The translations under genes and the position numbers were made by a program. From positions 64,001 through 128,000 of the IMG/VR virus record IMGVR_UViG_3300001528_000259: 64,000 nt of DNA. One strand, 5' to 3'. The DNA is from a virus. Lineage: Duplodnaviria; Caudoviricetes. Within the stretch, counting starts at the first letter, position 1; the number at the start of each line of letters is the position of its first letter. Below the pieces are notes generated by a model. It did no database searches. It saw only the letters and a list, made by a program, of their open reading frames with translations, and had not been told where the DNA came from. This document shows, piece by piece, positions 12,949 through 35,107 of the stretch.

Positions 12949-14331
12949 TTATCTGCTAAACTTTTTAATAGAGTAATTAAGCTGTTTAGCAAATGTATCA
13001 ATTTTCTTATCCATCATCGCTTCAAGTTGAGGCAAAGTATCTTTATCAACACGATCAACTCTTAGGAAATTCTCTACATCAACCGTAAACTGAGGTTTAC
13101 TAACAGCATTATTAATCATGTTAATATTTGCTCCAAATTTATTCGTGTTCATCAAACCATCAACTCCAATTTGACCGAGTTCCATCAATTCCTCTGTAAG
13201 ATCGGCAGGAACAACACCCGTGCCCTTACGCATGAAGGAAAGTGTTCCACCTTTGCCCGGAACGAGAACAAGTTCGTCTCCGAATTGAGGTTCGTCTGTA
13301 ATCGCAAATTCGTCACGCTTTGTGCCAGTTGTACCTTTAGCATATTGTCTAATTGCCATTGGGCCACTAACATATTGTCCCCACATTACTCGCTTAAACC
13401 TACGTTCATCATCACGTGTGTTTGCCACTTGTTTATATTGTGGAGAATATTTAATTTGATAATCTTTAAGAAGTTGCTCAAACTTACTTAAACTAATTGG
13501 ACCATATCCAAGAGCTAATACTTGATCCGAAGTAAGCTTATATTTTTTGTTTATGTCATCACCAGTAGGTGGTACATAAACAGAAGTAGGAGGAGGAGAT
13601 TGTGTACTGCCTCCGCCTGAACCAGATCCTGAGCCCGAGAGTTTAGCGCTTGCTGCTCTCGCTTCTGTGTCTTGTATTTGCTTATACAAATTGGACAGTG
13701 CAGTAGATGCAGTTTGCACATTGGAATTAATGTTAGAAACAACTCTATCCATTGCAGTAGCAACGCTGGATTTGAACGCATTAGCTGCATTCGTTCCTGC
13801 GCTCCAAGGAGACGTTAGGTTTGTTGTACCGTTTGCATTGAACTGAGCAAAGAAACCCCCTTCTCTCGTCCATTGGTTCATAAGATCGAGAGCATTGCCA
13901 GAATAATTACCAACTGCTTCTTTAGCTTTTATCCAAGGATTTGTAAGTTCAGCAGTTAATGGCAGATTTGTTTCTTCATACTTAGCAAGTATCGTATCGG
14001 CATTATACATAACCATTGAAGTGACGCCCATAAGAAACTCATCCATTTTTGCAGTGGCTTCTTCGAGACTTATGCGAAGTCCTTCAATAAATTTGTTCAT
14101 GCTTTCTTCATAAGCTTGTGCTTCAGAATCTAAAGCTTCGTTTTGGGCATTTTTTGCGTGGTCGTAGTAAGTATCGTTGAGTGACTCACGTGATTCATAT
14201 AACTGAGCTTCAAGTTTACGACGTTCTGCAATATCTGCTTTATTTGTAGAACCAGACAAACTTGCGATACGACGCTCAATTTCAGCAATATCTTTTGCTT
14301 GTTTTTGTACATTCTTTTTAAAATCATATAA
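12949..14331 (-). CDS. tape measure protein, exon 3
   Basis: Frame is open upstream of the annotated TTG to LYDFKKNVQKQAKDIAEIERRIASLSG; joins exon 2 as AERD|LYDF; contains QYAKGT..AITDE..G.ELV typical of TMP C-termini. Confidence 0.85.
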   Translation of the reverse strand, partial: LYDFKKNVQKQAKDIAEIERRIASLSGSTNKADIAERRKLEAQLYESRESLNDTYYDHAKNAQNEALDSEAQAYEESMNKFIEGLRISLEEATAKMDEFLMGVTSMVMYNADTILAKYEETNLPLTAELTNPWIKAKEAVGNYSGNALDLMNQWTREGGFFAQFNANGTTNLTSPWSAGTNAANAFKSSVATAMDRVVSNINSNVQTASTALSNLYKQIQDTEARAASAKLSGSGSGSGGGSTQSPPPTSVYVPPTGDDINKKYKLTSDQVLALGYGPISLSKFEQLLKDYQIKYSPQYKQVANTRDDERRFKRVMWGQYVSGPMAIRQYAKGTTGTKRDEFAITDEPQFGDELVLVPGKGGTLSFMRKGTGVVPADLTEELMELGQIGVDGLMNTNKFGANINMINNAVSKPQFTVDVENFLRVDRVDKDTLPQLEAMMDKKIDTFAKQLNYSIKKFSR

Positions 14332-14348
14332 CCATTATGTTACTATAT

Positions 14349-15260
14349 TCAATGAATAAAACTATGTAATTTTTCTCCTATATTTTCATTATACTTAATA
14401 CGAAGTAATAAAATATTATTTTGTTGACAGTAATCTGTTTTAATTTGATCATGGAATTGTCTAATTTTTAATCCTTTTTCTCCGCCAAAATGGTCTATCG
14501 CCTTAAAATGTTGCTCTCCATCATACTCAATGCAAATATTCAATACTGGTAGATAAAAATCAAATGGAAGCATACGCTTATCCTTACAATCATTAAATGT
14601 ATACTGCGGAATATAAGCAATATTGTTGATATTTAAATAATTGCCAATACTTTTTTCTCCGTGTGATTCATTGCATTTAGGACAGCCCTTTCCTGCTAAT
14701 ATATTTCCAGGTTTCACTTTCCATTCATGTCCACATATTTTGCATTTATGTTTTATCTTAATTTCAGTACTAACATATTCTTCAAGCGCAATGATGTTAG
14801 GATTTATATTAAACAATTTGGTAACGTACTCATTATGATTCGTACCATTTTTATTACTAATTTTTTCTTTAAGACACTCATAGCATCCACAACCTTTTAA
14901 TATATTAGTAGGCAACGCATCCCATATTACATTATGGATTAAACACCTGTGTAAAATTTTAGTTTTTACACCAACATATTCTCCCACGACTTCAATATTT
15001 GGATTTTTTAATTTTACCTCTTCAATATATTTCTCTTGTGTTTTTGTATTTGATGTTTTAAATTTTTCAATTCTACACTTTTTACATCCATGACCGTCTA
15101 ACACACGACTTGGCTTTGTTTCCCAAATCACATTGTGAATAAGACAACGATGCATAATATTTGTATTTGCATCAATATATTTTCCGATTACTTCCACATA
15201 TGGATTCTTTACTTTAAGCTCATTTACATATTCTTCATGTGTCTTTTTCTTACTCATCAT
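14349..15260 (-). CDS. intron-encoded homing endonuclease (Vsr/EDxHD-like, three Zn-binding repeats)
   Basis: Three KT.E.Y..E....NP.IE..G.Y....I.H.C..(H/C)...W...P...L.G.GC..C repeats; LPFDFYLP..NICIEYDGEQH..HD core. Confidence 0.85.
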   Translation of the reverse strand: MMSKKKTHEEYVNELKVKNPYVEVIGKYIDANTNIMHRCLIHNVIWETKPSRVLDGHGCKKCRIEKFKTSNTKTQEKYIEEVKLKNPNIEVVGEYVGVKTKILHRCLIHNVIWDALPTNILKGCGCYECLKEKISNKNGTNHNEYVTKLFNINPNIIALEEYVSTEIKIKHKCKICGHEWKVKPGNILAGKGCPKCNESHGEKSIGNYLNINNIAYIPQYTFNDCKDKRMLPFDFYLPVLNICIEYDGEQHFKAIDHFGGEKGLKIRQFHDQIKTDYCQQNNILLLRIKYNENIGEKLHSFIH

Positions 15261-15480
15261 ACCTCACCTCCAATCATTTTGTATTATTGAGTTTTATTCA
15301 TTTAGGTTCGTTAGACCTTATAGACTTGTTATAAACAAATTTTCTCTGGCTTTCACCAAAGTGCAGACCATCTCATTTACCATAATCATTTTGTGTAGTA
15401 ATGATTTTAGGTACCCTCCATTTCGGGATACTTACCCCTAATCCTATTTCAAGGAATGGCCGTTGAACCTTATTTGTAAT

Positions 15481-15509
15481 ATTATATCATAATCATTTTG
15501 TCGTGCCAA
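15481..15509 (-). promoter_or_regulatory. sigmaA-like promoter TTGGCA-N17-TATAAT (TG-extended) inside the P6 loop of intron 2
   Basis: Minus strand ttggca cgacaaaatgattatga tataat; spacer contains the recurrent CAAAATGATT motif. Confidence 0.55.
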
Positions 15510-15696
15510 TTAACAAAATAAATAAAAAATATTACAAATCTTGGCTGCTGATTATCCAATTTTCACAATTTTTAAACATTCACGCTCATTATTGCTAATC
15601 ACGTTGTAGTTTGTGAAACTCTAAGGAAGTCCCAGCAATTAAAAGGGATACACTATAAACTTTCGTATTATAGCGGACTAAGTAAGTTAAAACTTA

Positions 15697-18600
15697 ATCT
15701 CTTTCGGCTGAAAGTGCCTCTTTTACGCTATCTATATAATCATTATAGCCATCGACCAGCGTATCAATATATTTTTCTACTGCATCAATACTACTTTCGT
15801 ACATGTCAACAATAGATTGCTCAGTATCGCTGATTGATTTTGCATAATCATACTGTTGATCTTGCAACTCAGAAACCTTATCATAATACTCTTGCTCTGA
15901 ATGTATACCAAGGCTTTCATAATAAGATTTGGTGTTCTTCGAGTATGCCTTATTATATTTATTCAGTTCTTTTTCAGTATCTTCTAAACCTTGTTTGTAT
16001 AGTTCGAGTTCTTGAATATATGCACCTAAGGCTGCAACTCCAGACTCAGTCCAGTTACCCTCGTCATCAAACCAATCTTTTTCGCCGTTTGGTGCAATAA
16101 GATCACGAATAGTACTAAGTTTGTTTGTGAGATTATCAAGACGATTGTTAAACTCCTCGAACTTATAGGTGTTGATTTCGCCAATGGCATCTTGGAGATC
16201 AACAATTGATGCAGTTACATCATCCAATTCTCCTTCTATGTCGTTTAAAATATTCGCTGCTTCCCACCATTCGTCAGAGCCTTCTTTAACCGTTTTAAGA
16301 TATGCTAGCGCGGCTGCCTTTTGTTGCTCAAGCAACGACTTACGTTGATTCTCCAATTTGATTTGTTCTTGGTAATACTTTGCATCGGCTTTTTGACCTT
16401 TTTTCTCAAGCAAGTCAATTTCGTTTTGAACCTGTTCGTATTTAGCTTGGTTAGCCGCAATACGATTTTTCCAGTAGTCCATTTCTTTTTTAAAGCGGTC
16501 ATCTTCAACTTCTTCTTTATCAGTTTTACTACCCGGATCAAGAATATTATTGAATGCCGAAGATAGATTACTTTTAACGGAATCAATTAAACCAACGGTG
16601 TTTTGGAAATTTGTTAATACTTGTTGCCATTCTTCGTCACTAACAAATTCATTGTTCTGCGCTCCTTTTAGAGCCGAATTAAATGCAGCAACCGATCCTG
16701 CTGCAACAATGGCATCTTTCGCGACTGTACTAAGAGTTCCAGAATACGTTCCAAGCTCAATCGATGCTTGATTTGCTGCAACAGCACTGTTACTAACTTC
16801 TATGGCTTTTTTACGTTCTGCTAATACATTTAACTGTGTAATCGCTGTCTGAACAGCAGTTGCCTTGGCATCATCGAGTTTTGTGTTAAGCATCTTTTCA
16901 AGAGCACTTTGGTTGATGGTTAATTGACCACCTTCCATTTGAAGAACAGAAAGATATTCTGGAGATAGATTCAACAGCACTTGCAGGTTATCTAGAGATA
17001 AATACCCCTGTTTATTGTATTCGGTAGTAATAGCCTTAAGGCTGGAATATGCGCTCTGAATTTTGTCAACACTAGCATCAAACTCTTGTAAGTTAAGTTT
17101 GAGTTTTACTTCTGGAGATTGAGAATTAAGTTCATCTTCAATGCGTTTTAACTCACTCTCCGCATTAGTGATCTTTGTTTGTATTTCAATAGGGGTATCC
17201 GCTTTTAATTTTCCATTTTCATCGAAATACTGTTTATATTCTTCAACATAAGCATCATAAGCCGCTTTTGCTTGTCTATATGCCTCTGTCTCTATCTTAT
17301 CATCGCCGTTTGAATAAAATTTTCCATCATATTCCCAATAGTCGATACCTTCTATATTATGATATTTACCTATATCAGAAACCTTCATTAGTTTTGACTT
17401 GTGTCGTTCCAGATCCTCTTTTAAAGCATTATATCCTTTTTGACCGTTTTTACCATTAAGAAACTCATTATATTTATTTTGTTCTTCTTCCGCTTCCGTT
17501 ACGGCATCTTGCGCCTTCTTTTCTTCATATAACGCCTTAACAACTTCATCAATCGCATCTTTCTCTAAACCATATTTTTCGGCAATTTTATTAACTTGAT
17601 CAACTGCATCGCCATGAGAACGATACATTCCGTTAAAATACGCATCGAGATTAACATTATCGAGAATTTCTTGTTCAAGATTTTTCTTTAATAATTCTTC
17701 AACATATTCTCGTGCGTTTTCTACGCCAAGATTTTGCAATTGAATTATATACGTCCACTTATTTTCTGGCTTCAATTCATTATTAGCAAGTGCCCAATCA
17801 AGATAAGTCTTAACGAATTCTTCGGTGGCTTTTGTCATTTCCTCGACAGAAGATACACCAGAGAACACGGCGTTAGAATATTTAATCCATGCATTTGCTC
17901 CGTCTTCTGTTGCGTTGAAATTCTGAAAATGTTCATAAAGATCCGCAACCGTTTTAGACGTAACAGAGCCACGCTCGATAATTTCATCAAACGCTGTCTT
18001 TAATTTTTCAACGCCATCAGTGATTTTATTGATATCCTTTGCAACATCAAGAAGCCCAACATCTTTAAATTCAGTTTCTGCTCTTGTAACATTTTTAAAA
18101 TAGTCTTCTGCCTCATAAAGATACAATCCCATTTCACGAAGGCGAGCAACTTCTTCATCAGATAAAATTCTATTAAGCGTAAAACCATCCAGAGATGCAA
18201 AGGCTTCAGCAATCTTAGTTTCGTCGCCAGTTTCTTTGGCTTTTTTGATCTCGTCTTTTATTGCTTCTATTTGAGACTTAGCCTTAGCAAACCCATCTGT
18301 CGCTTCATCGCCAAATATACGAGCAAAAGCATTCGATTTGGCGTTGGCTCCTCCAGATTGGATTGCCCATGTGTCCATCTTATCTGCCCATTCAATGTAC
18401 TCCTTCTTTTGCTCTGTAGTCGCCGTGTCCCAATTTTGTTTAATTTGAGAATAATAAGAATCCATTTCTGACATATAACTTGCCATATTGGATTGATAAC
18501 TATTTAGAGCTTTTTGTGCTTCCTCAAATTTTTTCTTATTTTTATCCGAAGCATCCTTCGTATATTTTTCACGTGCCGCATTAAACTCGTTTTGGAGCTT

Positions 18601-20422
18601 TGTATATTGCTCCTTCATATTGTCGAGGGATTCTCCTACTTTCTCCTCGGATGCAGACTGTATTCCACCAACCACAGCACCAACAATACCACCAACTATT
18701 GCTCCAATTGCTGCGCCAATCAACATACCAATCGGACCAGCGAACGAACCCGCTGTAGTCCCAGCGGCTAAAAATCCACCCGCAGCAGTAGCCCCAGTTG
18801 CAGCTAAAACAGAACTTCCGACACCGGTTGCAACGCCAACGCCTGCTCCAATTGCCGCACCAGAACCAGCCTTTTCTCCAACATTCTCACCCGTTGTCTT
18901 ACCCGTTTTAACGCCAGTTTTCGCATACTTATTTGCAGTGTTAATTGCACTATCGTTAACTTCATACTGCTGTTGTTCTTTTATTGTATTTAAAAGATCG
19001 ATTTGTCTTTGAAGCTCTGCACTTTGTGCTTGTAACCGAGTAAGCTCTTCTTGGTCTGTAAATGTCAGAGGAGTGTTTTTGTTAATATCATTAATTTGAT
19101 TTTTAATATCATTGAGTTGCGACTCAAGTGTGCTCAATTCAGATTCTGTCTTAGACAACTCAGACTTTAGTTCATCAAATGACTCCTTTGCTTCTTCTAC
19201 TGTTTCATATGCTTTATCAAAAAGATCACCAATAATTTGTAATACCTTAGATATTGCATACATAACAAGCATCGATGCAACAGCAGACTGAATTTTTTGA
19301 GATAATTGCTCCGCACCATTCGCCAATGACTTAAATGCACCAGACCCAGTTTTTTTAAGATCTGCCTGTTTTTTATTTAATGTATCAACATTTACCTGTG
19401 CACGCTTAAGTCCATCTTGATATTTATACAGTTTCTTCGGATCTGTTCCTTGGTAATTATCAAGATTTGCCTGAGCGCGAGCAAGATTTTGCTGTGCTTG
19501 CGTGGAAGCTTCTTCTACGGCTCGTAATTCTTTTTTATAATCTTTTATTTTTTGAATTTCTGTGCCAAAATAACCCTTGGATGAGTCTGTTTGTTTAAAT
19601 CCTTCTTTTTGTAATTTCTTATATGTTTCAAGACTTTCTTCTGCCTCTTTTAATGCTTTCTTACTTGACTTACCACCGCCGTCGTCAATATATGCCTGTT
19701 TTGCATCACGAACGCTTTGTTCTAACTCTTCTAGTTTAGATGTTGTAGATTGAATATCTTTATTAATGCTTTTACCAAAAATACGGTTTGCGCCCTTTAA
19801 TGTTAAACCAGAGAATATTTTAGAAAAATTAAGACCACCAAACTTTGTTGAAACATATGTAAACAAACCAGCAAGTGCTAATTGTAATAGTCCTACATTC
19901 TCAACAATCTTAATAATTTCAGTCCCAAGACTTACAACCCATTTAACAACGCCACTATTGAGTGCATTATTCCACATAGTTCGAACGGAATTGTTAAATA
20001 AGTCAATACGCCCCTGAATTGAATCGAGGTATTTCTCATTTTCCTTGAGTGCAGAACCTGAAGCGTTTGCTGATGCTTCAATTGCTTGTTCGGCAGTATC
20101 GAAATTAGAAATGATTGAAGCTAAAATATTAGCCTGACGTTTTCCACCCATGAGTTCCATAGCAGATGCCTTTTCGATATCTGTCATGTACTTAAATGCT
20201 TCTGACATTTCACGTAATATCTGTGTTGTATTTTTAAAGGTATTTGCATCTAACATGATGTCAACACGACCACCTGTTAGTGCTAATAATTTCGCTTGAA
20301 GTGCCGACGTGGTTGTAGCCATATCGGACACATCCTCTCCCATCTCGGAGAGTTCGGTTTTAGAACCCCTTAACCTAAGAGTCAGTGTTTTCAGCGCAGT
20401 TCCTACGCTTTCTGGGTCTTGT
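15697..20422 (-). CDS. tape measure protein, exon 2
   Basis: Frame is open upstream of annotated Met to QDPESVGTALKTLTLRLRG; GGKRQANI, SANASGSALKENEKYLDSIQG; Gly/Ala TM zipper; coiled coils. Confidence 0.9.
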
Positions 20423-21742
20423 CAATCTATTACTTTCGGTTCCCACACCTACTGACCATATCTAATATGGCGATTAGTCATTTCTGGCTAATTCTCACGT
20501 TTCATGTTAATCGGTTTATAGCGTGAGTTCGGACTATATATTACATCCTCTTGTCTTTATATCAAAAAGAGTAGGATGGATAACTTCAGCACATATGTTA
20601 CCATATGCGCCCCGTAGTCTCTGAGGATAAAAATAAAATTATTATGCACATACTTTAATAAATTGTTTTAATATTTGTTCTATATTGTTAAAATCATAAT
20701 ACCAAATTTCCAATAATGTCATACAATGTTGGTTTGCATATTCACGTTTTCTTTTATCATGTTCTTGCTGTGTTTGGAATTGTTTGATTCCTCCGAAAAC
20801 CTCGATTGGACGTTCATGCTGTTCTCCCTGATATTCGATCAACAAATTTAATTCTGGTAAATAAAAATCATACGATAATTTACCACCACCCATACCAAAC
20901 AAATCATCAAACGTTTTATGCGAAATAAAATTTTGGTTTAATTTCAATAAAAAATCCTTAATTGCAGATTCACCTTTTGGCACATCACAATAAGGACAAC
21001 GCTGTGTGTACGCATTTGCTAACATTTTATATTGAATACCTATTTCTGGATGATGTTTACATATGTACTGCATTGGCGTATGAGAATTAATATATGGTTG
21101 ATCTAACAAAATCATATCGTTATGATCAAAGATTGTCTTGGCTTCATCATATGATAATTTTCTAGAGTTTGTAGTTCTTTCGATTCCACAATACTTACAG
21201 CCATATCCATGCCGTAAATTTTCATACCTAATAAATTGAGATCCTTTATCTGCATGTTTTAAACACAAATATTCAAGCTTAGTCTTTGCATTAATATATT
21301 CTGAGCTTAACAACAAATAACCTCGACTTTCAAACAAATCGCAAATATCACCCCATTTTGGTTTTTGAACATCTTTTGCACATTGAGAACAACAATACAA
21401 CCCCCTTTTTAACCCAGTTTCAACTTTGTCTACCTGAGATTTTGTTATCATAAATGGCTTTCCGCAATAATCACAATTGTACTCTATTTGTTTATTTTTA
21501 TTTGCACGAAAGCATTTATCTGAACAAAATTTGCTTCTATTTTCTTGTGATTTTGCTACATAATATTTCTTTCCACAATATTGGCAAACCTTCTCTGTTT
21601 GCATATTTTTCACCTCCTTTTTTGTAATTGTATTTGCACAATAATTTTATTAGTCTTTCCTAAGTCTTAAGTGAACCGCACTTTTTAACTTATATAGTTA
21701 TCTACTAGTAACTATATTACTATAGCTACGTGGCACAAATTT
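20423..21742 (-). mobile_element. group I intron 1 (IA-like, 1320 nt) in tape measure gene, endonuclease ORF in the P6 loop
   Basis: Exon GUGGU pairs with intron GCCAC (U.G at splice site); P10 UUUGU/ACAAG; P3 GAUAACU/AGUUAUC; R CUCAGAGACUA, S AUAUAUAGUCC; terminal G 20423. Splicing rebuilds the GT|A Val codon giving NEVVQDPESVG. Confidence 0.92.
20642..21604 (-). CDS. intron-encoded homing endonuclease (Vsr/EDxHD-like with TRASH-like Zn fingers)
   Basis: CQYCGK..FCSDKC repeats; LSYDFYLPELNLLIEYQGEQH..HDKRK core; RBS AAGGAGGTG. Confidence 0.85.
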   Translation of the reverse strand: MQTEKVCQYCGKKYYVAKSQENRSKFCSDKCFRANKNKQIEYNCDYCGKPFMITKSQVDKVETGLKRGLYCCSQCAKDVQKPKWGDICDLFESRGYLLLSSEYINAKTKLEYLCLKHADKGSQFIRYENLRHGYGCKYCGIERTTNSRKLSYDEAKTIFDHNDMILLDQPYINSHTPMQYICKHHPEIGIQYKMLANAYTQRCPYCDVPKGESAIKDFLLKLNQNFISHKTFDDLFGMGGGKLSYDFYLPELNLLIEYQGEQHERPIEVFGGIKQFQTQQEHDKRKREYANQHCMTLLEIWYYDFNNIEQILKQFIKVCA

Positions 21743-24700
21743 ACCACCTCGTTTGCAGCAGTTATAATACCAATTGATTCATCTAATGAGTTTCCGCCTT
21801 CTGCTAAAGCACTCGCAGAACGTTTTAACGCCTCACCAATTCCTTTAGAAGTGATACTAAACCTGTTACCCACTTCGTTGAACGAATCAACAATTCTCAT
21901 AGATTCAGACGCTTGAAGTCCAAATCCCTTCATGGTAGAAATTATACTTTCGGCAGCTTCGTCCGCGCTGGCAATACCATCTCCAACATTTTGATATACC
22001 AATGCGGCTTTTGCCATTTCAGATGCCTGAGTAATATTGTATCCCAGTTTTGCGAATGTTGCCGTTGCCAGTGTTACATCAGAAATCGTAGATCCAATTT
22101 CTGATCCTGTTTTTGCCGCAGTTTGTAAAAACTTATCATAAGTTTCTTCTGTTTCGTCTGTAACTTTCTTTAACTCCGTTAGAGCAAGGTCAATTTCTTT
22201 TACATACTGAATACCCTTTTTAAGTTCATTAAAGAACTTAAAAATTATACTTGAACCACTGAAGTACGTGAAAATTTCTTTTGTCTTACGTGTAATCGAC
22301 TCAATTATCGTTTCTGTTTTCTTGATGCCAGTACGCAATATACTAAGTCTGCCTGTCAATGGATCTACAGTAGCACTCCATGTCGCAAAAGTATTCGCTG
22401 CTATTTTTGTCGTACCAGTTAATTCACCGGTATCCGCGTTCATCCCCTGAATAACTACGCGACCTTGCGCCTGCGCTTGAACTGCCGCAGTAATCTTATT
22501 CCAATACTCGTCGGTTCCGACTGCGCCAAAACCAGATCCATCACCAAGATCAGTTGCATTATCACCACTATACTTTTCGTGAATCTTTAGATATCCATCG
22601 ACTTCTGATTTTAATTCTTTTACTTTTGATATCTGTTTGCTCAGATTATCTCTATCTTCTTCTGATGCTGCTGTTCCTTTTTTATTAATTTCGTCTCTTA
22701 AGTTACGTAAAACTTCAATTCGGTCAGACAAATCTCTTGCTTTCGCTTCGATATCTTTAGATATACCATCAGTACCAATCGCACGAAGTACAGTTTGATC
22801 TCCAGCATTAGCAGCAGAAGTTGCGGCATTAATACCAGTTGCTCTTTGAGCATCTTTAACACGTTGTTTCCAAACTGCTTCTTCGCTCTTATTATCAGCC
22901 TTATTTTGATCGTTGATTTTCCTTTGAGCTTTAGCCGCATCCAACAATCTTTTTTGTGCGTCAAACGATATACTATACTTTTCTCTTAATACAGCGTTTT
23001 CCTCGGTGGTAATTTTCAGCGAAGCTCGTTTTCTTCTAATCTCTTCTTTCAAGTTGTCGAGTCTCGCCTTAGTTTCAAGATTATTATCGCTGTCGAACTG
23101 TGCAGACAATCTACCAAGCGTCTCATAGTCATTCATGATAGACTTCATCATATTAGAACGAACCGCTTGTGTCTTAGATTGTGAACCTTGCGCATCTGCG
23201 TTTGCTTGTTTTACAGCACCACGAGTGGCAATTATGCCGCCCTTTGCAATCTTATCATTTATAGATTCGAGAACGCTTTTGATTTCAGTTAGTCTGCCGT
23301 CCAGAGCAGTTCCCGCTATCGTATCGACATTAGGCGCTTTAACTGTGCCAATACGCGAAGTACTTTTTTGAATATTATCCAAAACTCCTTTGACCGTTTG
23401 AAGTGTACTTTCAAGCGCCCAAGGAGATTGATTCTGTTCTCCATCATTTTGTTGTGTTTGACGATTAATAACGTTTGCAAAAACTTTATTAAGTGTTGAC
23501 TCAAGAGATGTTTCGTCAATAGCGACTTTATTGTCTGTATTCTCTGTATCTTGAATAACTTTTACATTATACGTGATTGAATTTAGAACATTTTTGAGCT
23601 CCTCAGTGTTGACAGAAGACTTATCAGACGCATCGCCAATGCCAGTTTTGACATTTGCCAACTGTTCACGAAGTTCTTGAATCATACCACCTTTAATCGT
23701 TGATTCTTCGGTTGCTTTGCGAGCTCGTTCTTCGGCATCTGATATTTGATCATACAATTCTGCTCTTGCTTGTTGATTACGATACGCTTCATCCGCCGCT
23801 TCGTCCACTTGTTTTTGAAGACGGTCTTGTAGTGCAATGTTTTCAGCCTGTAAAGCTTCTACTTTTTTTCTCTCTGATGCAAGTTCCGAAGAAGATGCAT
23901 CGCCAGCGCTAGAAGAAACGGTCTCTTGTTGTATGCCTGTGCCATTTTGTGCTTTTGCAGCGTTTAATTCTTCCTGCGCCTTAGTCTCCGCTTTAATTGT
24001 TTCCGTATTCTGTTGATGAGCGTCCGCCTCTTTCTTAACTCGCTCAAAAACAACGTCTTCAATCTCAATTCCGCCATATGTTTCACCATATTCATCGGCA
24101 AATTTATAAAGAGATCTTAGTCCTTTATCATCTGGTAACATCTCGACTTTCTTGCCATTTGCAAGTTTTAAGATAATCTTATCATATGTTTGACCAAATT
24201 CCTCAAGAGCCCCATCTGCCGCATCTATTTGTTCGCCAAGCTCATAATATCTCTCTTCTTCTTTTGTGCTTAAACCAGAATCCATATCTTTCTGATTTAA
24301 TTCTTCATATCTATCTCTTTGTCTTTGAGTTATGTTAGAAGCATATTGATCTGCAATGTCACGCAATAATTCAAGCTTATCTTCCAGCTTACCGTTTTCC
24401 TGAGTGATTGTTTCTGCATCATCTTCTGCAGACGCCTCTGATCTGGCAGATGTATTTTCTTGGATTGCGCTATTTACATCTTGGACTACAGGCAACGTAT
24501 TTTGAGCCATCTCTTTTAAGTGTGCCAAATATTCACTAGTAGATTTAAAAACAACCGCCGAATTTTCAATACTCTTGACGTCGGGGTCATAAATTACGCT
24601 ACCCTGATAATTACCGTCATAACCTTGATCTCCCGTTGCATTTAAAACACCTTCGTATCCCAATGCTTTCATAAATCTGGTGCCAAAATTATGATGATCC

Positions 24701-26727
24701 TCAGGAACTTTACCTTGTGCAAACAAGTTTGCTATGTTCTCACACTCATTTTTTGCATTCACAACCCATGTATGGAATTGCTCTTTAGTCATCTCAAAAT
24801 TTGTAAAGAGTTTCGTCGCGACATCAAATAACTCATCTTCCGTTAGATCTTCTATTTTGGTCAGTTTAGAGCCGTCCAAAATCGTTCCGTTTCCGACTAA
24901 TTTTTGCAAACTCGATAAAAATTCTCGCAAGATTTCGGCTTGTTCAACTGTTTGGTTAACATATAATTTATATTTGCTAGCGTCAAATTCAAAAAACGAT
25001 ACTTTACCATCAGCCAGAAAGGGTACCAAATCCTGTGCTCCACTCAAAAGAGAAGCAAATATGCCATCTCCAAATCCCGCAAATTCATCCTCTAATGCAT
25101 TTTGAATTATTGGTGTATGATTCACATCATAGAGTGCATCCGCACTTTGATTTCCAAGCAATGCAGGATTAAATTCGCCTTCGACACGTCGATATAACAA
25201 TAATTTCTTTTCTGATTCTACCTGTCGTTCCACTGCCGCAGCAGTCTTTTCTTCTTCAGTGCGTTTCTGTTTTGCAAACTCAGTCGCTTCTCTTTCCGTC
25301 TTAGCTTTTAATTCAGAGTCTTCTCTAGCACGTCTTTCTGTTTCTGCGATTTTATTTGCGTTATTAACATCTTCTGGCGTTGGTCCAAACTGTCCGTCGT
25401 TTCCGCCATTGGCAGTACCAACATTCTCGCCAATAATTTGACGCAATGATGTTTCTGCAATACTTGCAACAGGAGAAAGTTGATCGTACAGTTCATCATA
25501 TTTTTTAAGTTTTGCTCTCATATTACGGCGTTTTACACCGTCTGATTCATTTTGTACTTTTTCAGCATAATTTTCATATTCTTTTACAAATTTAACCAAC
25601 CATTGATATTGAGCCTCCCAATCTTCATTGTTGGATAAAGACTTATCATATCTATTTTTTAGAACTGCCAATGATGCACTTTCTGGAGAATAATTAAGAG
25701 CAGAAGATATTTTTTCATTTACTTTTTCTGCACTCTTTTCTTTTTTTAACATCCTATTGTATGCTTCTTCTATTTCTTTAACTGTTTTTAAAGAAGATTG
25801 CAGATTTTCTTGATTTATAATCTCTGCTTGGTTCTGCTGTAGAGACTTTATTTGTTCATCAATCTGACTGACCTCTACGTCGATATTTTTTATTTGATTT
25901 TGATAATACTTATCAAAATTACGTACAATTTTATTAAAATCAGCATCCGCTTTGTCAAAAACGTCAGCCGTTGTATCTGAAAGATTAACGAATTCAAAAT
26001 CAGATAGCAATGTCTTATCTTTAACCAAGCCCTTATTACCGTTTATAGTACGGGACATTCTATATAGATTTTCTGCCGCACTTAAAGCCTCAATGAGAGC
26101 CGCATTGTATTCTTTTGTTCCTTTTGTGACTTCACTTAATGCATCTTCTGCCTTAATGAACTCTCCCATTATACGCTGAGCTTGTTCGTCTATGCTTTCA
26201 GTGTCAGATATTTTCAACGGTTTAAACTCGTCATATTCCATCGTTGATAACTCAGACAATCTCTCATATTTGGCATAACGCAAATCGAGTTTTTTGGATT
26301 GTTGATTTAATTCATTTTTTCTTTTTTGCAAATCATTAAGTTGCGCTATAATATCACGGCTAGCATCCGCAATTCCTTCTTTTACACCAGAAACAATGCC
26401 TTGAGCAACGCCATTTCCAATACTCTGACCTAATTTTCCAGACCCAGCATTAACGCCAGCGGTAATACCGTCTGTAATCGCACTTGCAAACTGAGATACA
26501 ATACCCTGCAATGTTTTCTCAGAGAACACAATTTCTTGTTTTCCCATTTGCTTCAATTGGTTGTTAAATTCTTTGGTCAACTCGGTCAGACTATCTGCGT
26601 CCGTATCAACCTTCATTTTCAAAATATCATTCAGCTCTTGTGCTAATTCTTTTGCATCATTTTTTACAGCGTCTCTATCCAATATAGGTTTAATCGACGC
26701 TAACCATTCTGCTTTTCTTGTTGCCAT
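21743..26727 (-). CDS. tape measure protein, exon 1 (spliced product about 3697 aa)
   Basis: Ends in the TP901-type TMP core (IDLALTELKKVTDET..FAKLGY..DSFNEVGNRFSITSKGIGEALKRSASAL); ATG 26727 behind RBS GAGGTG. Confidence 0.9.
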
Positions 26728-26737
26728 ATTTCTCACC

Positions 26738-27283
26738 TCACTTTCTTATTGATCTTAAGATTTGTTTTCCAACCGAACGCCTAAAGTTTCGGTCAAATGT
26801 ATAATCATAACTATTAATGAATTTCTGAATTTCTTCTGCTGGCACAAAAGAACCATAATATTTTTGATCCTCATAATTTCCACCGCCGACAATACTACTT
26901 CCGTCTGTGCGAGGATGAATACCAGCAAGAAAGTTTCCAATAATCCACTCTGCATCTGCTGGTGAGTATATTTTTGATCCATAATATGTATTTTCTATTT
27001 TTGACGGATCAAATTCCACACCAGCAGAACAAATTAACGTATCACCATTTTCGCGTACCGGATTTGAATATGGCACAAAACTTTCCATTAAACTGTAAGT
27101 ACGATTATAACTAGTTGGATCATAATCATCATAGTATCGCACCAAACAAGATACAGTATTACTATACAAATCTTTTTCTGCTTGTTTAGTTGCATCCTCT
27201 GCCGCCGTTTTAAATACTTTTTTATAATCTTTTAGCATTTCTTCTGCCGCCTCGTCTATAGCTTGTTCCAAAGTTTTCGCCAT
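26738..27283 (-). CDS. conserved tail-associated protein preceding TMP
   Basis: YYDDYDPTSYNRTYSL..GIHP motif typical of the pre-TMP gene in such phages. Confidence 0.55.
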   Translation of the reverse strand: MAKTLEQAIDEAAEEMLKDYKKVFKTAAEDATKQAEKDLYSNTVSCLVRYYDDYDPTSYNRTYSLMESFVPYSNPVRENGDTLICSAGVEFDPSKIENTYYGSKIYSPADAEWIIGNFLAGIHPRTDGSSIVGGGNYEDQKYYGSFVPAEEIQKFINSYDYTFDRNFRRSVGKQILRSIRK

Positions 27284-27305
27284 ACTAACTCCTCCAATTT
27301 ATTAT

Positions 27306-27881
27306 TTACTTTAATTTATCTAAAAGCCCAATTAACTGGGACAAGTCTTCCTTTTGAATATCTGTGCCAAGGACGTCTTTCAGATTAAAATCTTCAAACT
27401 TTTCTTTTAAAACTGAACCAACTCCATCAAGTTTTTTCAGTACGCCATCAAGAAAATGCCCAACAAGCACATTTACATTATTATCTTCAAGCTCAGATGC
27501 TAGTGCCATCTTTAACAAAACATCGCACTCCTCATAATCATTCTGAAATTCTGCAATAATCTGTGCTAATAATCCACTTTCAGCAAGCAAATCATAATCT
27601 ACCACAGGATCTTCGCTCCACTCCAAATTAGTATGTAACGACAGCGTCGCAATAATGAAGCTCAAATATTGCCCAATCTGGTCATTCTTTTTAATGCCAT
27701 CAATCTCACGAATATTCTGGGACACAACCATTTCCATTGCTTGTTTTTTATCTCTAAAAGGCACATACTTTTTTACCTCAAGCTTTTCTGTAATATATTC
27801 ACCAATCGCATTAGGTTCACTCTTTGTATTTATCACATGTGCGTTTTGAAAATCTTTAACAAAATCTTGTATTTTAATCAT
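27306..27881 (-). CDS. putative tail assembly chaperone
   Basis: KKYVPF.DK, LHTNL, YDLLAESGL motifs; position upstream of TMP. Confidence 0.55.
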   Translation of the reverse strand: MIKIQDFVKDFQNAHVINTKSEPNAIGEYITEKLEVKKYVPFRDKKQAMEMVVSQNIREIDGIKKNDQIGQYLSFIIATLSLHTNLEWSEDPVVDYDLLAESGLLAQIIAEFQNDYEECDVLLKMALASELEDNNVNVLVGHFLDGVLKKLDGVGSVLKEKFEDFNLKDVLGTDIQKEDLSQLIGLLDKLK

Positions 27882-27895
27882 AATAATTTCTCCTT

Positions 27896-28279
27896 TTAAT
27901 CATTTTGATGAGTAATAAACTCATTTATTGCATACATATCTGCCACACTCATTTTTAGTTCTTCCAATTCCTCTAATGTGAATCTCACATTAGGCGGTTC
28001 AATCTCAACATTGTTGAGTTCCTGTAGTGTAGCGTTCGCCTCATCAGTCTTATCGGGTATGATTTTAATCATACCATTATCCGTAATAACAATGTTGCCA
28101 TTGTCATCCTTAATTGAATACGTGTCAATAATTTCCTGTCTTTTAGTATTAAAAAAAATTTCTTCAGTTTCCGAATCCTTACAAAATCTCATAATTTTGT
28201 ACGCAAGTTTAGCAGAGATTTTAGTTTGCGCAAACTGATTAAAAACTTGTATTGCGCCAATAAGTGTACAAATCTTCAT
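27896..28279 (-). CDS. hypothetical protein (possible tail-spike chaperone)
   Basis: Start reassigned to MKICTL behind strong RBS; follows S74-containing spike gene. Confidence 0.5.
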   Translation of the reverse strand: MKICTLIGAIQVFNQFAQTKISAKLAYKIMRFCKDSETEEIFFNTKRQEIIDTYSIKDDNGNIVITDNGMIKIIPDKTDEANATLQELNNVEIEPPNVRFTLEELEELKMSVADMYAINEFITHQND

Positions 28280-28304: not shown

Positions 28305-31300
28305 TTATTGTAATTTTGCAACAATATCCTCAAGTTCCTGAACGCGCTTTTTAAGTTTTTGTATTTGCCAAGTGTTAAGAGCGATGAACTCCTCATATCG
28401 CAATGAACATGTTTCCTCATCGTTCTCATCTTTTGTTTCAACATATGCTGCAAAGTCCTGTGTAGTTAAACCAGCATTATTTATCGCTTGCAAAACATCT
28501 TGGGCTATAAACCCGCTGTGTATTCTGTTTGATGTCCCGTAATTAAATTTATATGTAACCGGAACAAGCGCGTCATAAAGCACATTATATTTATCAGAAA
28601 ATGTACTAATAGAGTTCTTTTTGTTTTTATCTGATATAATTGAACCGCTTGTGTTTCCCGTAATAGTGCCGCTAATGTACAAATCATTTGATCTGACCGA
28701 CATTTTTACAATCTGATAATTGTTAGCATTTATTGTACGTAAATTAGTTGTGCCACCATAGTAAAAAGTAATTCCATAATTTGTATACGCAACCGCTGTA
28801 TTTTGTTCTTGATTACCATTATTATCGCCGGAACAAAAAACAATTGATGGTCTAATTGCAGTATTATAATCGAATGTAGATGGGTTTCCTCCCCAATATG
28901 AAAATCCATCTCCGCCTATATAAACATAATTATCAGCAATAATACCCAATCCTCCAGATCCAGCAAAAGATGAACCACGAGAATAAATACAAGGACTGTT
29001 AGCAGAATCACTACCACTACTAATATGAAATGGATAGGTAGTATTTCCAAATGTACCAGTTGCCGCAGATAACGATCCGGCAAATGTTCCGGTTGCTGCG
29101 GATAGTGATCCAGCAAATGTGCTTGAAGCACTAATTGTACCTGTAATATGCGCTGAACGACAATAAAGTTCACCTTTTGTGTTAACTCCAAAATTACTTC
29201 CGGCTTTTAGTACCCATCCAGTACTTGTATGTCCGGCAATAGTAAAACTAGTTTTACTGCCCGTACACAAAAAAGCGTTAGCACTACTAAAAGATGTGCC
29301 ATAATAAATTGAATCATCGTTGATGGTCCAACCATTAGTTTGACTACCAATATAACCGGTTGTAGCAGTTAATTTACCTGAAATGTCAACCTCAGTAGCA
29401 GTTAAACCGGTTGCATCTATTTGATCCGCAGTTATACTACCAGTAGCAATATTGGCACCGTTAATTTTTGTGCTTCCGTTTTCTGTTGTTGTAAAAGCCA
29501 CATTGCCATCCAGTATAATATTCTTAGCATCTATAGTAATATATGAACTCGAATCATTCTGCCCAAGTACAATACTTGCACCCTCAAGCTCAACACTCTG
29601 ATCTTGCTCTGTTCCGTTCGTCGTATCTGTTCTTTTTGCAACTAAGGTTAAACTGGAACCGTCTCCTCCAGCTTGTTGCTGAAAAGTCGCAACATATTCG
29701 CTCCCATCATCATTTTTCCAAAAAGCGTTATTTGCAATAGTCGCATCAGTATTTGACAACCTATCAGAAAGAGTAATTCCACTTCCTCTTGCATTCACAA
29801 TTTCCGTATATATACCATCCGCAAATTGTCTAACCATGCTTGTAATGCGATTGTTGACATTACCAGCTAAAGTTGCTACCTTAATCCATGTGTCCCCATC
29901 TAATATATACAATTCAGCCTCATCATACCAATATGCATATGCAGTTCCTGCTGGTTGTGTAGTACCAAACCATACCTTGCCAATCGACTCATCCCATGTT
30001 TCACCGTTCCATATATAATAAAACCCAGGAGTAAACTCATAGGTTACATCTGTATATGTTTCTGTATGGGTATTTCCCGTTGGTATGTAAATCATGCCTG
30101 TTTTTAAGATAGTTTTGGCTTGATCCAATGTAAGACCATACGCCTGAGAAAATTCTCCAACGCTATATTTGTCCACAGAAGATAACATTCGACTATATTC
30201 TTCTGCATTTTTTGCTATAAGTAGTTTATTTTCCTCATCTAATGTACTGACAGTTTCCATTTCCGCCTTAGTAGACAGTCCATTTTTAACATACTCCGCA
30301 AAATATTCTGCGCCAGTGTTAGTTTCTCCGGTAACAGGATCAGTATATGACCAGCGGCTGATTGGCTCTACTGTTTGTTCAATCTCATTAGCCCTTGCTA
30401 ATGCTGCATTTGCTTGATTTACAGCCTCTGTTCGAGCACTTTCAGCAGACGTTACTGCACTTTCTGCAATGGCTTTTGCCTGAGCAGATATGGTAGCTAT
30501 ATTTTCTACCTGCGTATTCATATTTCCAACATCCGCAGTGATTTCGTCAACTCTACTTAATGCATCTTGTACCTGATCACTCATTGATGAATTAGAAGAT
30601 ATGCTTTCTTCTGCTTTGTTGTATGCTGCCTGAGCAACATTAATTGCAGCCGCGATATTTATTTCGGCACTATCAACACGATCTGCTATTTGCTGTAAAT
30701 TTTTACCCATTACATCTGTCGTACACGCCTGTACCCCAAGCATAATCACAGCATATTCAATACCATTTTTATTCTCTCTTGCAAATACCCTATATCCGTA
30801 ATTAGAGGAGGTCTTGGTGGCATATCCGCTTTTATTGGATGTGACATAATCTCCAACTTCAACATCTAATTCACAACGAACATCTACAAGTCCAGAAGTT
30901 ACTATAAGTCCATGTGTATTTTTTCTTGAATCATTAGCATCTTGACCACCAACAAAACCAGCGGCGTCAACAGACACACCAAAAATATCAACACCATCGC
31001 AAATTTTAATAGTTGATGTATTCGGTACTATACTAACAAAATAACCATATGTATCATATAATGCGTCGTGCCATTCATAATAATTAGCAATATTAACACT
31101 ATCAGATTGAACTGTTTTAAGTCGCTCAATTTCATCAAGTTCTGATCGTAATCCCGTAATTGCTTTGATTGGGTGCTGGTCATACTCATCTCTACCATTT
31201 AAACTATAATGGCGTGCAGTATCACCACCAACCCATCCAACAGCTTCGGTGGTTTCGACTTCTATTTCTTGAGTGCCTTCAACTTGAACGGACTGGATTT

Positions 31301-31418
31301 CTTCTTCTGTCTGAACACTTTGCTCTAAGATTTCTATATTTGAGATAGTTTCAGAAGAATCTTCTGGGACAATATCCAAATACTCCACTGTGCCCAATTC
31401 ATCTAATTCTTCATCCAT
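28305..31418 (-). CDS. tail spike/fibre with N-terminal Peptidase_G2-like and C-terminal Peptidase_S74 chaperone domains
   Basis: SDKNKKNSI..HSGFIAQDV..LRYEEFIAL coiled coil; NYYEW..GYFVS..GLVDVR..VGDYV..G.ATK; tandem TFAGSLSAATG repeat. Confidence 0.75.
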   Translation of the reverse strand: MDEELDELGTVEYLDIVPEDSSETISNIEILEQSVQTEEEIQSVQVEGTQEIEVETTEAVGWVGGDTARHYSLNGRDEYDQHPIKAITGLRSELDEIERLKTVQSDSVNIANYYEWHDALYDTYGYFVSIVPNTSTIKICDGVDIFGVSVDAAGFVGGQDANDSRKNTHGLIVTSGLVDVRCELDVEVGDYVTSNKSGYATKTSSNYGYRVFARENKNGIEYAVIMLGVQACTTDVMGKNLQQIADRVDSAEINIAAAINVAQAAYNKAEESISSNSSMSDQVQDALSRVDEITADVGNMNTQVENIATISAQAKAIAESAVTSAESARTEAVNQANAALARANEIEQTVEPISRWSYTDPVTGETNTGAEYFAEYVKNGLSTKAEMETVSTLDEENKLLIAKNAEEYSRMLSSVDKYSVGEFSQAYGLTLDQAKTILKTGMIYIPTGNTHTETYTDVTYEFTPGFYYIWNGETWDESIGKVWFGTTQPAGTAYAYWYDEAELYILDGDTWIKVATLAGNVNNRITSMVRQFADGIYTEIVNARGSGITLSDRLSNTDATIANNAFWKNDDGSEYVATFQQQAGGDGSSLTLVAKRTDTTNGTEQDQSVELEGASIVLGQNDSSSYITIDAKNIILDGNVAFTTTENGSTKINGANIATGSITADQIDATGLTATEVDISGKLTATTGYIGSQTNGWTINDDSIYYGTSFSSANAFLCTGSKTSFTIAGHTSTGWVLKAGSNFGVNTKGELYCRSAHITGTISASSTFAGSLSAATGTFAGSLSAATGTFGNTTYPFHISSGSDSANSPCIYSRGSSFAGSGGLGIIADNYVYIGGDGFSYWGGNPSTFDYNTAIRPSIVFCSGDNNGNQEQNTAVAYTNYGITFYYGGTTNLRTINANNYQIVKMSVRSNDLYISGTITGNTSGSIISDKNKKNSISTFSDKYNVLYDALVPVTYKFNYGTSNRIHSGFIAQDVLQAINNAGLTTQDFAAYVETKDENDEETCSLRYEEFIALNTWQIQKLKKRVQELEDIVAKLQ

Positions 31419-33064: not shown

Positions 33065-35107
33065 TTAGTTCATTCCTGTTACGCTTGACACATATCCAAG
33101 AGCTGACGAACCACCGTTAGATCTCGCCCACTTTAAATAAACGGTTGATCCTGTGTAATAAATACTAAATACCACATAATTTAACTCATCTGCAATCTGA
33201 TACTCGGTAGCGGTACTGGTTATCATTGTTTTTGGGATAACCAGAGTTTCAGAGCTAGATCCGGACTTCGGGCAAGCCTTTATTATATAAGCATTGTAAG
33301 TTCCCAATGTACCAAGATTTACTGTAGTTGAGGTGTTATTCAGCGTTCCGGTCCATATGGTTGAAACAGAAGGATTCTTAGATTCTTGCCAACTTACCCA
33401 TAACCCAGACATATACATTGACGTAAATTCCTTTGCTTGAGGCATAAAATTTATTAAAGCCCTAAGCCAGACGCGGACAGTGCCATCGTTGTTATACTTA
33501 AACGATTCAACAAGAAACGGGTACGAACCCAATAAACTATGCGTAGTCGAAGGAATATATATAAATTTCATATATCCATCTTCCGCGTTATATGCATAGT
33601 TTTGGATTTCAGTATTCATAGCGAGGTCAGTCGTTCCAGTTCCAGTTACTATAAGAGGAGATTCACGCGGAATTGTTGTCGGTACATTAAAACGGAAATC
33701 ATTTTCTCCCCAATCAAATACCGGGATACTTTTATTAATCCGATATACTGAGCTTACTCCTACGGTGTTAACCGCGTCATATGCTGTCACTTCAACATCG
33801 TATGCACTAGTATATGATACACCAGTTAGAGAGCCGGTTGCGGAATATGAATTTCCAGAAATTGTTGTAGTAAGATTAGTATAATCTCCATAGCTTCCAC
33901 CAACAGATTTTACACGTGCTTTAACAGTCAGAGAGTTTGTTGTCGTTCCAAAACTTCCAGAGAAATAATTACCGTTTGATGAAACACTTACAGTATCCGA
34001 GTCAGAAGTTCTCTGTGTTGTAACATTGACCGTAAGAGGAATGTATTCAATAAGAGTAAGTTCAGGAACAGAAATACTGCTTGAAATTCCTCTGCTGTCT
34101 GTTATGGTAACCGTTACAGTGCTGCTTTCGACGGAGTTCAGCGTTACATCGGCTCCGCTTCCGCTCACGCTACCACAAACGACGCGTACAGAAGCTATGG
34201 AAGCGCCGTTCTTCGCTGTCGCAGTAGTTTGTACCTGAAGATTAGAAAAACCTTTCACGAGTTTTGAGGAATCCCCCGTCAAGGCAAGTGTCAGAGAATT
34301 AACGTCGGCAGCCGTCACAGAAGCCTCTGGTAGATTTTCGCTTTCACGAACAGATGCCGTCATATAAGTCTCATTTGTGCCCATTGAGGTACTTCCGCTA
34401 AAGGTTTCACATAGTATGTATATCTTTATCTCTTTACTATTCGGGATTAGCTGATACACAGTTTCCGGTACAGTCCATCCATACTGCGTAACGGAAGTAT
34501 TGGCAATAATCTCGGTATAGGTACTCTGTCCTTCTATTTTATATGAAAGAGTACTTGTATTCGCAGTATTGTTCTTATTAATAACAATAGTGCTCACCGC
34601 TCCAATATAGGCATCTGTTGCCGTCACGGTGTTTTTTCTTGCAATTGCCGGAAGTGTAGCGGTAACAGATACCGTTCCGGTTGCGTCTTTATTAGGAGTA
34701 TATGTTGTGCCTGTTACAGTAAATTTCCATGTACCATCGAGCAAAACATTCTTGGCGGATCCATTAGAGCAGTCAACCGATACCGTTCCCTCGTCGATTA
34801 CAGTACCTTTTTTATAGCTGTATCCTCCTTCAGAAAATGCGGAAAGTTCCCATTCGCCAGAAGGCTTCTTCGTGCCAGAAAATGCCGTTGTTCCATTGAT
34901 TGTACTGCTGTACGTTGTGCCATACCCATAAAATGAGGAGTTTATTGTACAAGCAAGCACCATTTTCGTTGATACCGTGTGATATCCCGTCGTAGTATTA
35001 GGTACGGTCTTGCCATAAAGCAAAATATAGTATCCGTAACTTCCACTCTGCGGCGTAAGCTTTGACGATCTTCCAAGGTATTGATATTCACTTGTCAAAG
35101 TTGCCAT
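33065..35107 (-). CDS. second DUF859-type minor tail protein
   Basis: LPAIARK, ITDSRGISS and PVFDWGENDFRFN motifs. Confidence 0.75.
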   Translation of the reverse strand: MATLTSEYQYLGRSSKLTPQSGSYGYYILLYGKTVPNTTTGYHTVSTKMVLACTINSSFYGYGTTYSSTINGTTAFSGTKKPSGEWELSAFSEGGYSYKKGTVIDEGTVSVDCSNGSAKNVLLDGTWKFTVTGTTYTPNKDATGTVSVTATLPAIARKNTVTATDAYIGAVSTIVINKNNTANTSTLSYKIEGQSTYTEIIANTSVTQYGWTVPETVYQLIPNSKEIKIYILCETFSGSTSMGTNETYMTASVRESENLPEASVTAADVNSLTLALTGDSSKLVKGFSNLQVQTTATAKNGASIASVRVVCGSVSGSGADVTLNSVESSTVTVTITDSRGISSSISVPELTLIEYIPLTVNVTTQRTSDSDTVSVSSNGNYFSGSFGTTTNSLTVKARVKSVGGSYGDYTNLTTTISGNSYSATGSLTGVSYTSAYDVEVTAYDAVNTVGVSSVYRINKSIPVFDWGENDFRFNVPTTIPRESPLIVTGTGTTDLAMNTEIQNYAYNAEDGYMKFIYIPSTTHSLLGSYPFLVESFKYNNDGTVRVWLRALINFMPQAKEFTSMYMSGLWVSWQESKNPSVSTIWTGTLNNTSTTVNLGTLGTYNAYIIKACPKSGSSSETLVIPKTMITSTATEYQIADELNYVVFSIYYTGSTVYLKWARSNGGSSALGYVSSVTGMN

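Follow-up and report, generated by a model that had tools for sequence, protein, structure and literature searches.

A conserved domain with a predicted ADP-ribosyltransferase-like fold in the tape measure protein of an uncultured large siphophage

The known cargo of tape measure proteins includes cell-wall enzymes, but we know of no tape measure protein with an enzyme of the nicotinamide adenine dinucleotide (NAD+)/ADP-ribose conflict systems. Whether such a case exists is the question raised by a 64,000-nucleotide stretch of DNA (hereafter the window: positions 64,001 to 128,000 of the IMG/VR record IMGVR_UViG_3300001528_000259), which comes from a 138.7-kb virus contig of an uncultured phage with an estimated completeness of 83%. 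A globular island in the coiled coil of its tape measure protein had been proposed, in what we call the original prediction, to be an ADP-ribosyltransferase (ART)-like domain of the type found in phage polyvalent proteins. With a confidence a little above even, we favour the reading that residues ~511-747 of this protein are a separate domain of the ART superfamily, representing a family undescribed in Pfam, and that this domain would bind NAD+ and perform non-canonical chemistry after its delivery. The features on which this reading is built are listed below; all window coordinates of tape measure features refer to the minus strand, and residue numbers to the 1674-aa open reading frame (ORF) 21712..26736.

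21742..26736, minus strand: exon 1 of the tape measure gene, within the listed ORF 21712..26736 (1674 aa)
24496..25206, minus strand: ART-fold island, residues ~511-747, delimited by the AlphaFold model, fold matches, conservation and family searches
25183-25203, minus strand: strand 1, LLLYRRV, from residue 512, with Y515-R516 at the ART 'region 1' position
25051-25074, minus strand: Gly-rich loop and strand 2, FGDGIFAS, from residue 555, with F560 as the ART 'region 2' aromatic
24661..24951, minus strand: helical insert, residues ~596-692, between strands 3/4' and the GYEGV strand
24640..24681, minus strand: TRFMKALGYEGVLN, the best-conserved motif of the family, which includes MKALGYEGVLN (residue 689, 24640-24672)
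24580-24606, minus strand: strand 5, QGSVIYDPD, from residue 711, with G712 and S713 at the place of the ART catalytic Glu/Asp

The four motifs on which the original prediction was based, placed by it at 24560-25205 (residues ~505-725), were all found on the minus strand at residues 512-719, and the structural model extends the island to residue ~747. The protein that carries them was correctly taken for a tape measure protein: the PF10145 (PhageMin_Tail) profile matched residues 1539-1660 with its positions 3-123 of 201 at E 6.5e-13 and 49.4 bits, above the cut-off of 33.2. Among 16 close relatives, mean identity in the island was 50-70%, as compared to 18-36% in the flanking coiled coil, and within exon 1 only the tape measure core motif was conserved to a similar degree. 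When residues 500-750 were compared with 1.84 billion representative proteins, 62 matches were obtained, the best of them at E 1e-100. Two of these are shorter fragments and one is likely spurious; the others are proteins of 1272-6026 aa, and the giant proteins among them come from metagenomes. Seven matches were inspected and proved to be mostly tape measure proteins: four had a PF10145 match that reached the cut-off close to the C-terminus, and a fifth matched this profile below the cut-off.

The AlphaFold model of the window island (m824789b18b43), for which a 45-row alignment served as input, had a mean predicted local distance difference test score (pLDDT) of 92.9 and a predicted template modelling score of 0.89. 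The pLDDT, the sharp conservation peak and the 62 database relatives refute the view that there is no discrete feature at this place and that the motifs are chance similarities in a low-complexity coiled coil, to which we assign a practically negligible probability. Clearly, the island is a discrete, conserved domain. Its family has no Pfam description and is defined as a domain family in this analysis.

In agreement with the original prediction, the modelled island has a split beta-sheet core of the ART type. The core consists of seven strands and is accompanied by a four-helix insert (model residues 98-192, with DSSP helices at 98-116, 134-144, 152-174 and 185-192) and a C-terminal helix. 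The best structural matches of this predicted fold were members of the ART superfamily, with MbcT ranked first; a second model, made for a member of the polyvalent type (pLDDT 84.8), also found MbcT first and then other RES toxins. The helical insert of ~100 residues matched only TetR-like helical bundles. In BFVD, the best rows for the window model ranged from E 6e-3 to 0.7, with an unnamed protein at the top (E 5.7e-3) and proteins named PolyVal ADP-ribosyltransferase or ART-PolyVal-like at ranks 4, 5 and 9 (E 0.02-0.06), and with the second model ART-PolyVal proteins came first (E 2e-3, probability 0.98). By ESM Atlas features, RES-named and ART-PolyVal clusters scored 0.90-0.92, and ART-PolyVal proteins were the commonest named neighbours of the island. 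A match to the pre-ejectosome of cyanophage A4 (9k3a_B) was rejected, as it had a root mean square deviation of 7-8 A and was spread over more than 1000 residues; the paper on that structure mentions no island-like domain, and we regard the match as meaningless.

The conservation of individual positions was counted in 64 family sequences, comprising 60 giant-protein matches and four sequences of the polyvalent type.

Position 515: aromatic in 60/64 (Y515 in the window)
Position 516, strand 1: His in 41/64, Arg in 23/64, no other residue
G556 and G558: 64/64
Position 560: Phe in 31/64, Tyr in 31/64 (Phe in the window)
D585: 61/64
S587: 58/64
E598: 59/64
R687: 62/64
G693 and G696: 64/64
D707: 51/64
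G712: Gly in 63/64
S713: Ser, Asn or Thr in 64/64
V714: 63/64
D717: 55/64

The motifs follow one another as in the ART layout: an aromatic-H/R pair on strand 1, GxGx(Y/F) on strand 2, GYxGV, and GSV(I/L)(Y/F)D. Region 1 of ARTs, the His or Arg after an aromatic residue on strand 1, is represented by Y515-R516, and region 2, the aromatic residue on strand 2, by the last position of GxGx(Y/F). Judging from the sequence, both signature positions of an NAD+ pocket, Arg516 and Phe560, appear to be retained. Within the clade that has Arg at the first of them, a single member (P0023) has His. Region 3, the Glu, Asp or Gln that opens strand 5, is lacking and its place is taken by Gly, so that the substitution of QGS for the catalytic Glu, pointed out in the original prediction for the window protein, turned out to be a property of the family. 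The helical insert has near-invariant residues of its own, namely T596, E598 and T686-R687-F688.

The family-wide lack of the canonical catalytic acid weighs against the reading that we favour, as it is equally compatible with a pseudo-enzyme and with a non-canonical enzyme. However, regions 1, 2 and 3 of MbcT are occupied by R27, Y58 and Gly152, respectively, of which R27 and Y58 are essential, and MbcT is an active and very fast NAD+ phosphorylase despite its Gly at region 3 (PMC6436930). By analogy with Gly152 of MbcT, the missing acid need not mean that the island is inactive. R516, F560 and G712 would then be the equivalents of R27, Y58 and G152; this correspondence, like the placing of the pocket-lining residues as a whole, is by strand position and not by superposition, which is a further point against the favoured reading.

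The same residue pattern could belong to a catalytically dead pseudo-ART, in which the nucleotide pocket is kept and which, after delivery, acts solely as a binder: its role could be to sequester immune signals derived from NAD+ or ADP-ribose, or it could attach to a nucleic-acid end or a host protein. The strand-5 acid is absent from 64/64 sequences and position 713 is never acidic, the structural matches of the island include inactive folds (the TASOR pseudo-PARP, PARP13 and the PARP domain of RCD1), and strong constraint persists at the pocket-type positions, all of which fits such a protein. Yet MbcT, with the same Gly, is among the fastest NAD+-degrading toxins known, the alternation of His and Arg is that of active ARTs, and the near-invariant D585, S587, E598, R687, D707 and D717 exceed what simple binding usually needs. 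We consider a mere binder unlikely, even if it has to be reckoned with. Somewhat less doubtful, but still tentative, is the most far-reaching version of the enzymatic reading, in which the island has enzymatic activity, either NAD+-consuming or ADP-ribosylating, with a non-canonical centre of Arg/His, Tyr/Phe and Gly and catalytic polar residues contributed from elsewhere, e.g., D585, E598, R687 or D707. The island would in that case open an undescribed ART clade as its first member borne by a tape measure protein, and would be the first cytoplasm-directed enzyme shown to travel by a siphophage tape measure.

Kinship with polyvalent proteins became apparent when the pattern TRF[ML][KQ]xLG[YF] picked up 16 viral loci. 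Seven of the 16 were of the tape measure type and came from genomes of 113-168 kb, two of them with terminal repeats. The other loci encode a divergent island, YHAGDLGK...GTGHFGTGTYF...TRFMKxLGYEG.DVRG...YGSVIYDL, and its hosts are true polyvalent proteins with LPD38, AAA_34/Helicase_C_4 (SNF2-like helicase) and HhH domains. In one of them (L014), the divergent island lies between canonical PF18760 domains, one at aa 1739-1943 and the other from aa 2462. As hhalign aligned the tape measure-type island with the polyvalent-type island over the whole domain at 99.8% probability (E 7e-28), the island is, by sequence comparison, a polyvalent-protein domain that is found also in tape measure proteins; its homologues reside in polyvalent proteins, and the copy in the window sits in a tape measure protein instead. 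The family as a whole is restricted to giant phage proteins of these two kinds, tape measure proteins and true polyvalent effector proteins. Within the insert of the polyvalent-type island of L014 (aa 2222-2322), we also noted a weak match to PF18870, the HEPN/RES N-terminal domain 1 (E 0.0066, 17 bits), which is below the cut-off and can serve only as a lead towards RES-associated modules.

Several sequence searches speak against the assignment of the island to the ART superfamily, as none of them tied it to any known ART family. Pfam gave no PF18760 match for the island at E<=10 (the cut-off of this family is 31.2 bits), no ART or RES family for 12 diverse family members at E<=5, and no PF18760 match at E<=10 when the window genome and the genomes of five related phages were searched in six frames. 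The island found no match in PHROGs or among PDB sequences, the latter also with a domain-only profile (A6). At the level of structure, Foldseek with the island model found nothing below E 0.1 in the PDB. For comparison with ART-PolyVal we gathered two proteins and six close loci. Between the island and canonical ART-PolyVal, represented by five closely related sequences, hhalign gave a non-significant P value of 0.03-0.18 for a collinear alignment of 163-196 columns, in which YH was paired with YH, GxGxY with GFGIYF, LGYxGV with LGIDGY, and GSVI with GIVV (island and canonical ART-PolyVal, respectively). A PDB profile search with the full-length alignment (A4) returned only coiled-coil noise and was discarded.

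The hidden Markov model (HMM) of the island family recovered every island copy among all fetched loci and none of the canonical ART-PolyVal copies, while the PF18760 HMM detected the canonical neighbours in L014 at 98 and 54 bits. What had been predicted as an ART-like domain of the polyvalent type is partly supported, by the predicted fold, the order of motifs and the polyvalent homologue, and not by PF18760 or by hhalign against its members. ART-PolyVal was defined by an H-Y-D active site (Iyer et al. 2017, PMC5512222). In the island family, His and Tyr occupy the first two positions in 41/64 and 31/64 sequences, respectively, and the strand-5 Asp is changed to Gly. Independently of the island, we observed that the residue just before strand 5 in the canonical ART-PolyVal copies (L014, L020-L022 and P0071) is Gly, Asp, Lys or Gln, so that this Asp is not conserved even among copies recognised by the Pfam ART-PolyVal model. 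With regard to RES, neither a Pfam match nor the R-E-S triad was found, and there is no family-wide conserved Arg between strands 1 and 2.

As compared to its relatives of known type, the island shares with ART-PolyVal (PF18760; Tox-ART-HYD2 clade) its nature as a phage-borne module within a giant multidomain virion protein, and the succession of aromatic-His-(Gly), GxGx(Tyr/Phe), helical insert, GY/IDG-type strand 4 and hydrophobic strand 5. It differs by the loss of the strand-5 Asp of H-Y-D to Gly, by the change of His to Arg in the window clade and of Tyr to Phe in the window itself, and by its carrier, a tape measure protein, an architecture that is absent from the 2017 and 2022 surveys. 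With the prototype RES toxin MbcT (PDB 6FKG) it would share the R/aromatic/Gly layout, if the equivalence of strand positions holds. In contrast to MbcT and the other RES toxins (VPA0770, NatT and the P. putida RES toxin), it has no RES Pfam match, no recognisable R-E-S triad in the order of MbcT, and a helical insert of ~100 residues; moreover, RES toxins stand alone with an Xre antitoxin, whereas the island is a module of a virion protein. New here are the exclusive alternation of His and Arg, the family-wide Gly as in MbcT, the homologue beside PF18760 and the negative outcome of the sequence tests.

The distribution of the island bears on the question whether it is needed for the tail. Using tblastn, we found no window, His-type tape measure or polyvalent-type island in 50,697 GenBank phage records, and no polyvalent-type island in 72,556 PLSDB plasmids. 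No island copy appeared in 185,579 prokaryote species genomes scanned with clade patterns, a scan of viral contigs with a single island sequence gave no match, and the domain profile found no stand-alone forms of 132-650 aa. The window protein has a core akin to that of tape measure proteins annotated in phages of Brevibacillus, Enterocloster, Bacillus and Lactococcus. Cultured phages with a homologous core, among them Brevibacillus phage Sundance and phages of Enterocloster, Thomasclavelia, Bacillus and Lactococcus, lack the island, and the Sundance protein (2528 aa) gave negative scores with the family HMM. More than 60 giant metagenomic proteins have the island. Since phages with a homologous core lack it, the island is an accessory module in a subset of uncultured large siphophages; from the hosts of the same cultured relatives, these phages probably infect Bacillota.

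It might be argued that the island serves the structure or assembly of very long tails, e.g., as a spacer or as the place where tail chaperones, the terminator or the connector bind, and that its likeness to the ART topology is remote or fortuitous and has nothing to do with NAD+. Its residence in a tail protein leaves room for this view, which we nevertheless hold to be improbable. The cultured relatives with a homologous core, Sundance included, build their tails without the island, so that it is dispensable for tail building. In addition, the domain is found outside tape measure proteins, in polyvalent proteins, where it sits beside canonical ART-PolyVal, helicase, HhH and LPD38 domains, and three independent kinds of search converge on the ART superfamily.

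If, as we favour, the island is an NAD+-using domain, it would travel with the tape measure protein as the latter leaves the tail at infection, and would fold or be released in the host. There it would bind NAD+ and use it by non-canonical chemistry, which may be cleavage or phosphorolysis of NAD+ or a substrate-assisted mono-ADP-ribosylation of a host target; a role against host defence is conceivable. Early depletion of NAD+ would seem harmful to the phage, which favours a transferase or binding role over that of a bulk NADase. A difficulty for this scheme is that three folded copies of 27 kDa would not fit in the tube of a siphophage tail, and the island must therefore be kept in an unfolded state, be located outside the tube, or undergo processing.

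Enzymatic domains embedded in tape measure proteins are known from T5 pb2, from mycobacteriophage TM4 with its Rpf motif, and from the lytic domains of the SPbeta YomI type. The island resembles them as a non-ruler globular module in a PF10145 protein that leaves the tail. However, the known cargo acts on the cell wall, whereas the fold of the island is that of cytoplasm-directed NAD+-using enzymes, and the island is located far N-terminal of the tape measure core. In concept, it resembles also the virion-packaged phage ARTs, T4 Alt and the MuF-VIP2 fusions (PMC7302621, PMC9503650), which are delivered with the virion at the start of infection. These are R-S-E clade members in which the catalytic Glu is retained, and they are brought into the head via MuF or capsid-targeting sequences, in contrast to the island in its tape measure protein. 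Our literature search found MuF-VIP2 and head-packaged ARTs, but no paper that describes an ART in a tape measure protein. Should the island be active, the tail of long-tailed phages would offer a route for early effectors beside the head-packaged T4 Alt, MuF fusions and polyvalent proteins, and giant tape measure proteins would be a second route for the injection of polyvalent-type effectors. The small set of ART-fold enzymes that, like MbcT, do without a catalytic Glu would be enlarged as well. In any case, a domain family that lacks a Pfam entry and is known to date only from uncultured large phages could enter annotation resources.

The rest of the tape measure gene lies in pieces downstream of the island-bearing exon.

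20642..21613, minus strand: HNH homing endonuclease ORF (phrog_559, E 2e-49), inside intron 1
15694..20421, minus strand: exon 2 of the tape measure gene, continuation of the core

The start of exon 1 is likely Met4, at 26727. Its coding sequence breaks off after AANEVV, the final nine codons of the ORF 21712..26736 extending into the intervening sequence, and the core picks up as QDPESVGTALKTLTLRLRG at ~20421. Because the ORF breaks after AANEVV, an HNH ORF follows and the core then resumes, exon 1 of the tape measure gene is a description consistent with the data. The gene is broken twice by HNH-carrying sequences on the minus strand, at 20422-21741 and 14332-15696, the second of which contains another HNH homing endonuclease ORF (14349-15260, phrog_559, E 8e-83). 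The first interruption cuts a conserved core motif, between AANEVV and QDPESVGTALKT. Rfam detected no group I intron at E<=0.1 across 14000-28000. The tape measure core is interrupted also in the related phages L002, L004/L005, L006 and L007, in which the continuation lies 0.6-2.2 kb past the end of the ORF, and in L006 the core is in three pieces; in L001 and L003 the tape measure ORF is unbroken and exceeds 4,190 aa. Among the database relatives, several stop at PF10145 profile position ~86 and others at ~123-145, which points to two or more sites of recurrent insertion in the tape measure core. A stretch of ~150 residues right after the island (residues 751-900; 24037-24486, minus strand), which includes the non-helical-looking KIILKLANGKKVEMLPDD, is present in only ~6-13% of the 16 close relatives and may represent one more lineage-specific insertion in this protein.

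Downstream of the tape measure gene, the tail module encodes a DUF6558 tail protein and DUF859 siphovirus proteins. Two DUF859 genes flank the module, at 2480-4531 and 33065-35107 (minus strand; E 1e-40 and 5e-21, respectively). Upstream of the tape measure gene, an ORF of 1037 aa (28305-31418, minus strand) ends in a C-terminal Peptidase_S74 intramolecular chaperone domain (E 8e-8), which is typical of tail fibres and spikes and is unusual in this place ahead of the tape measure gene.

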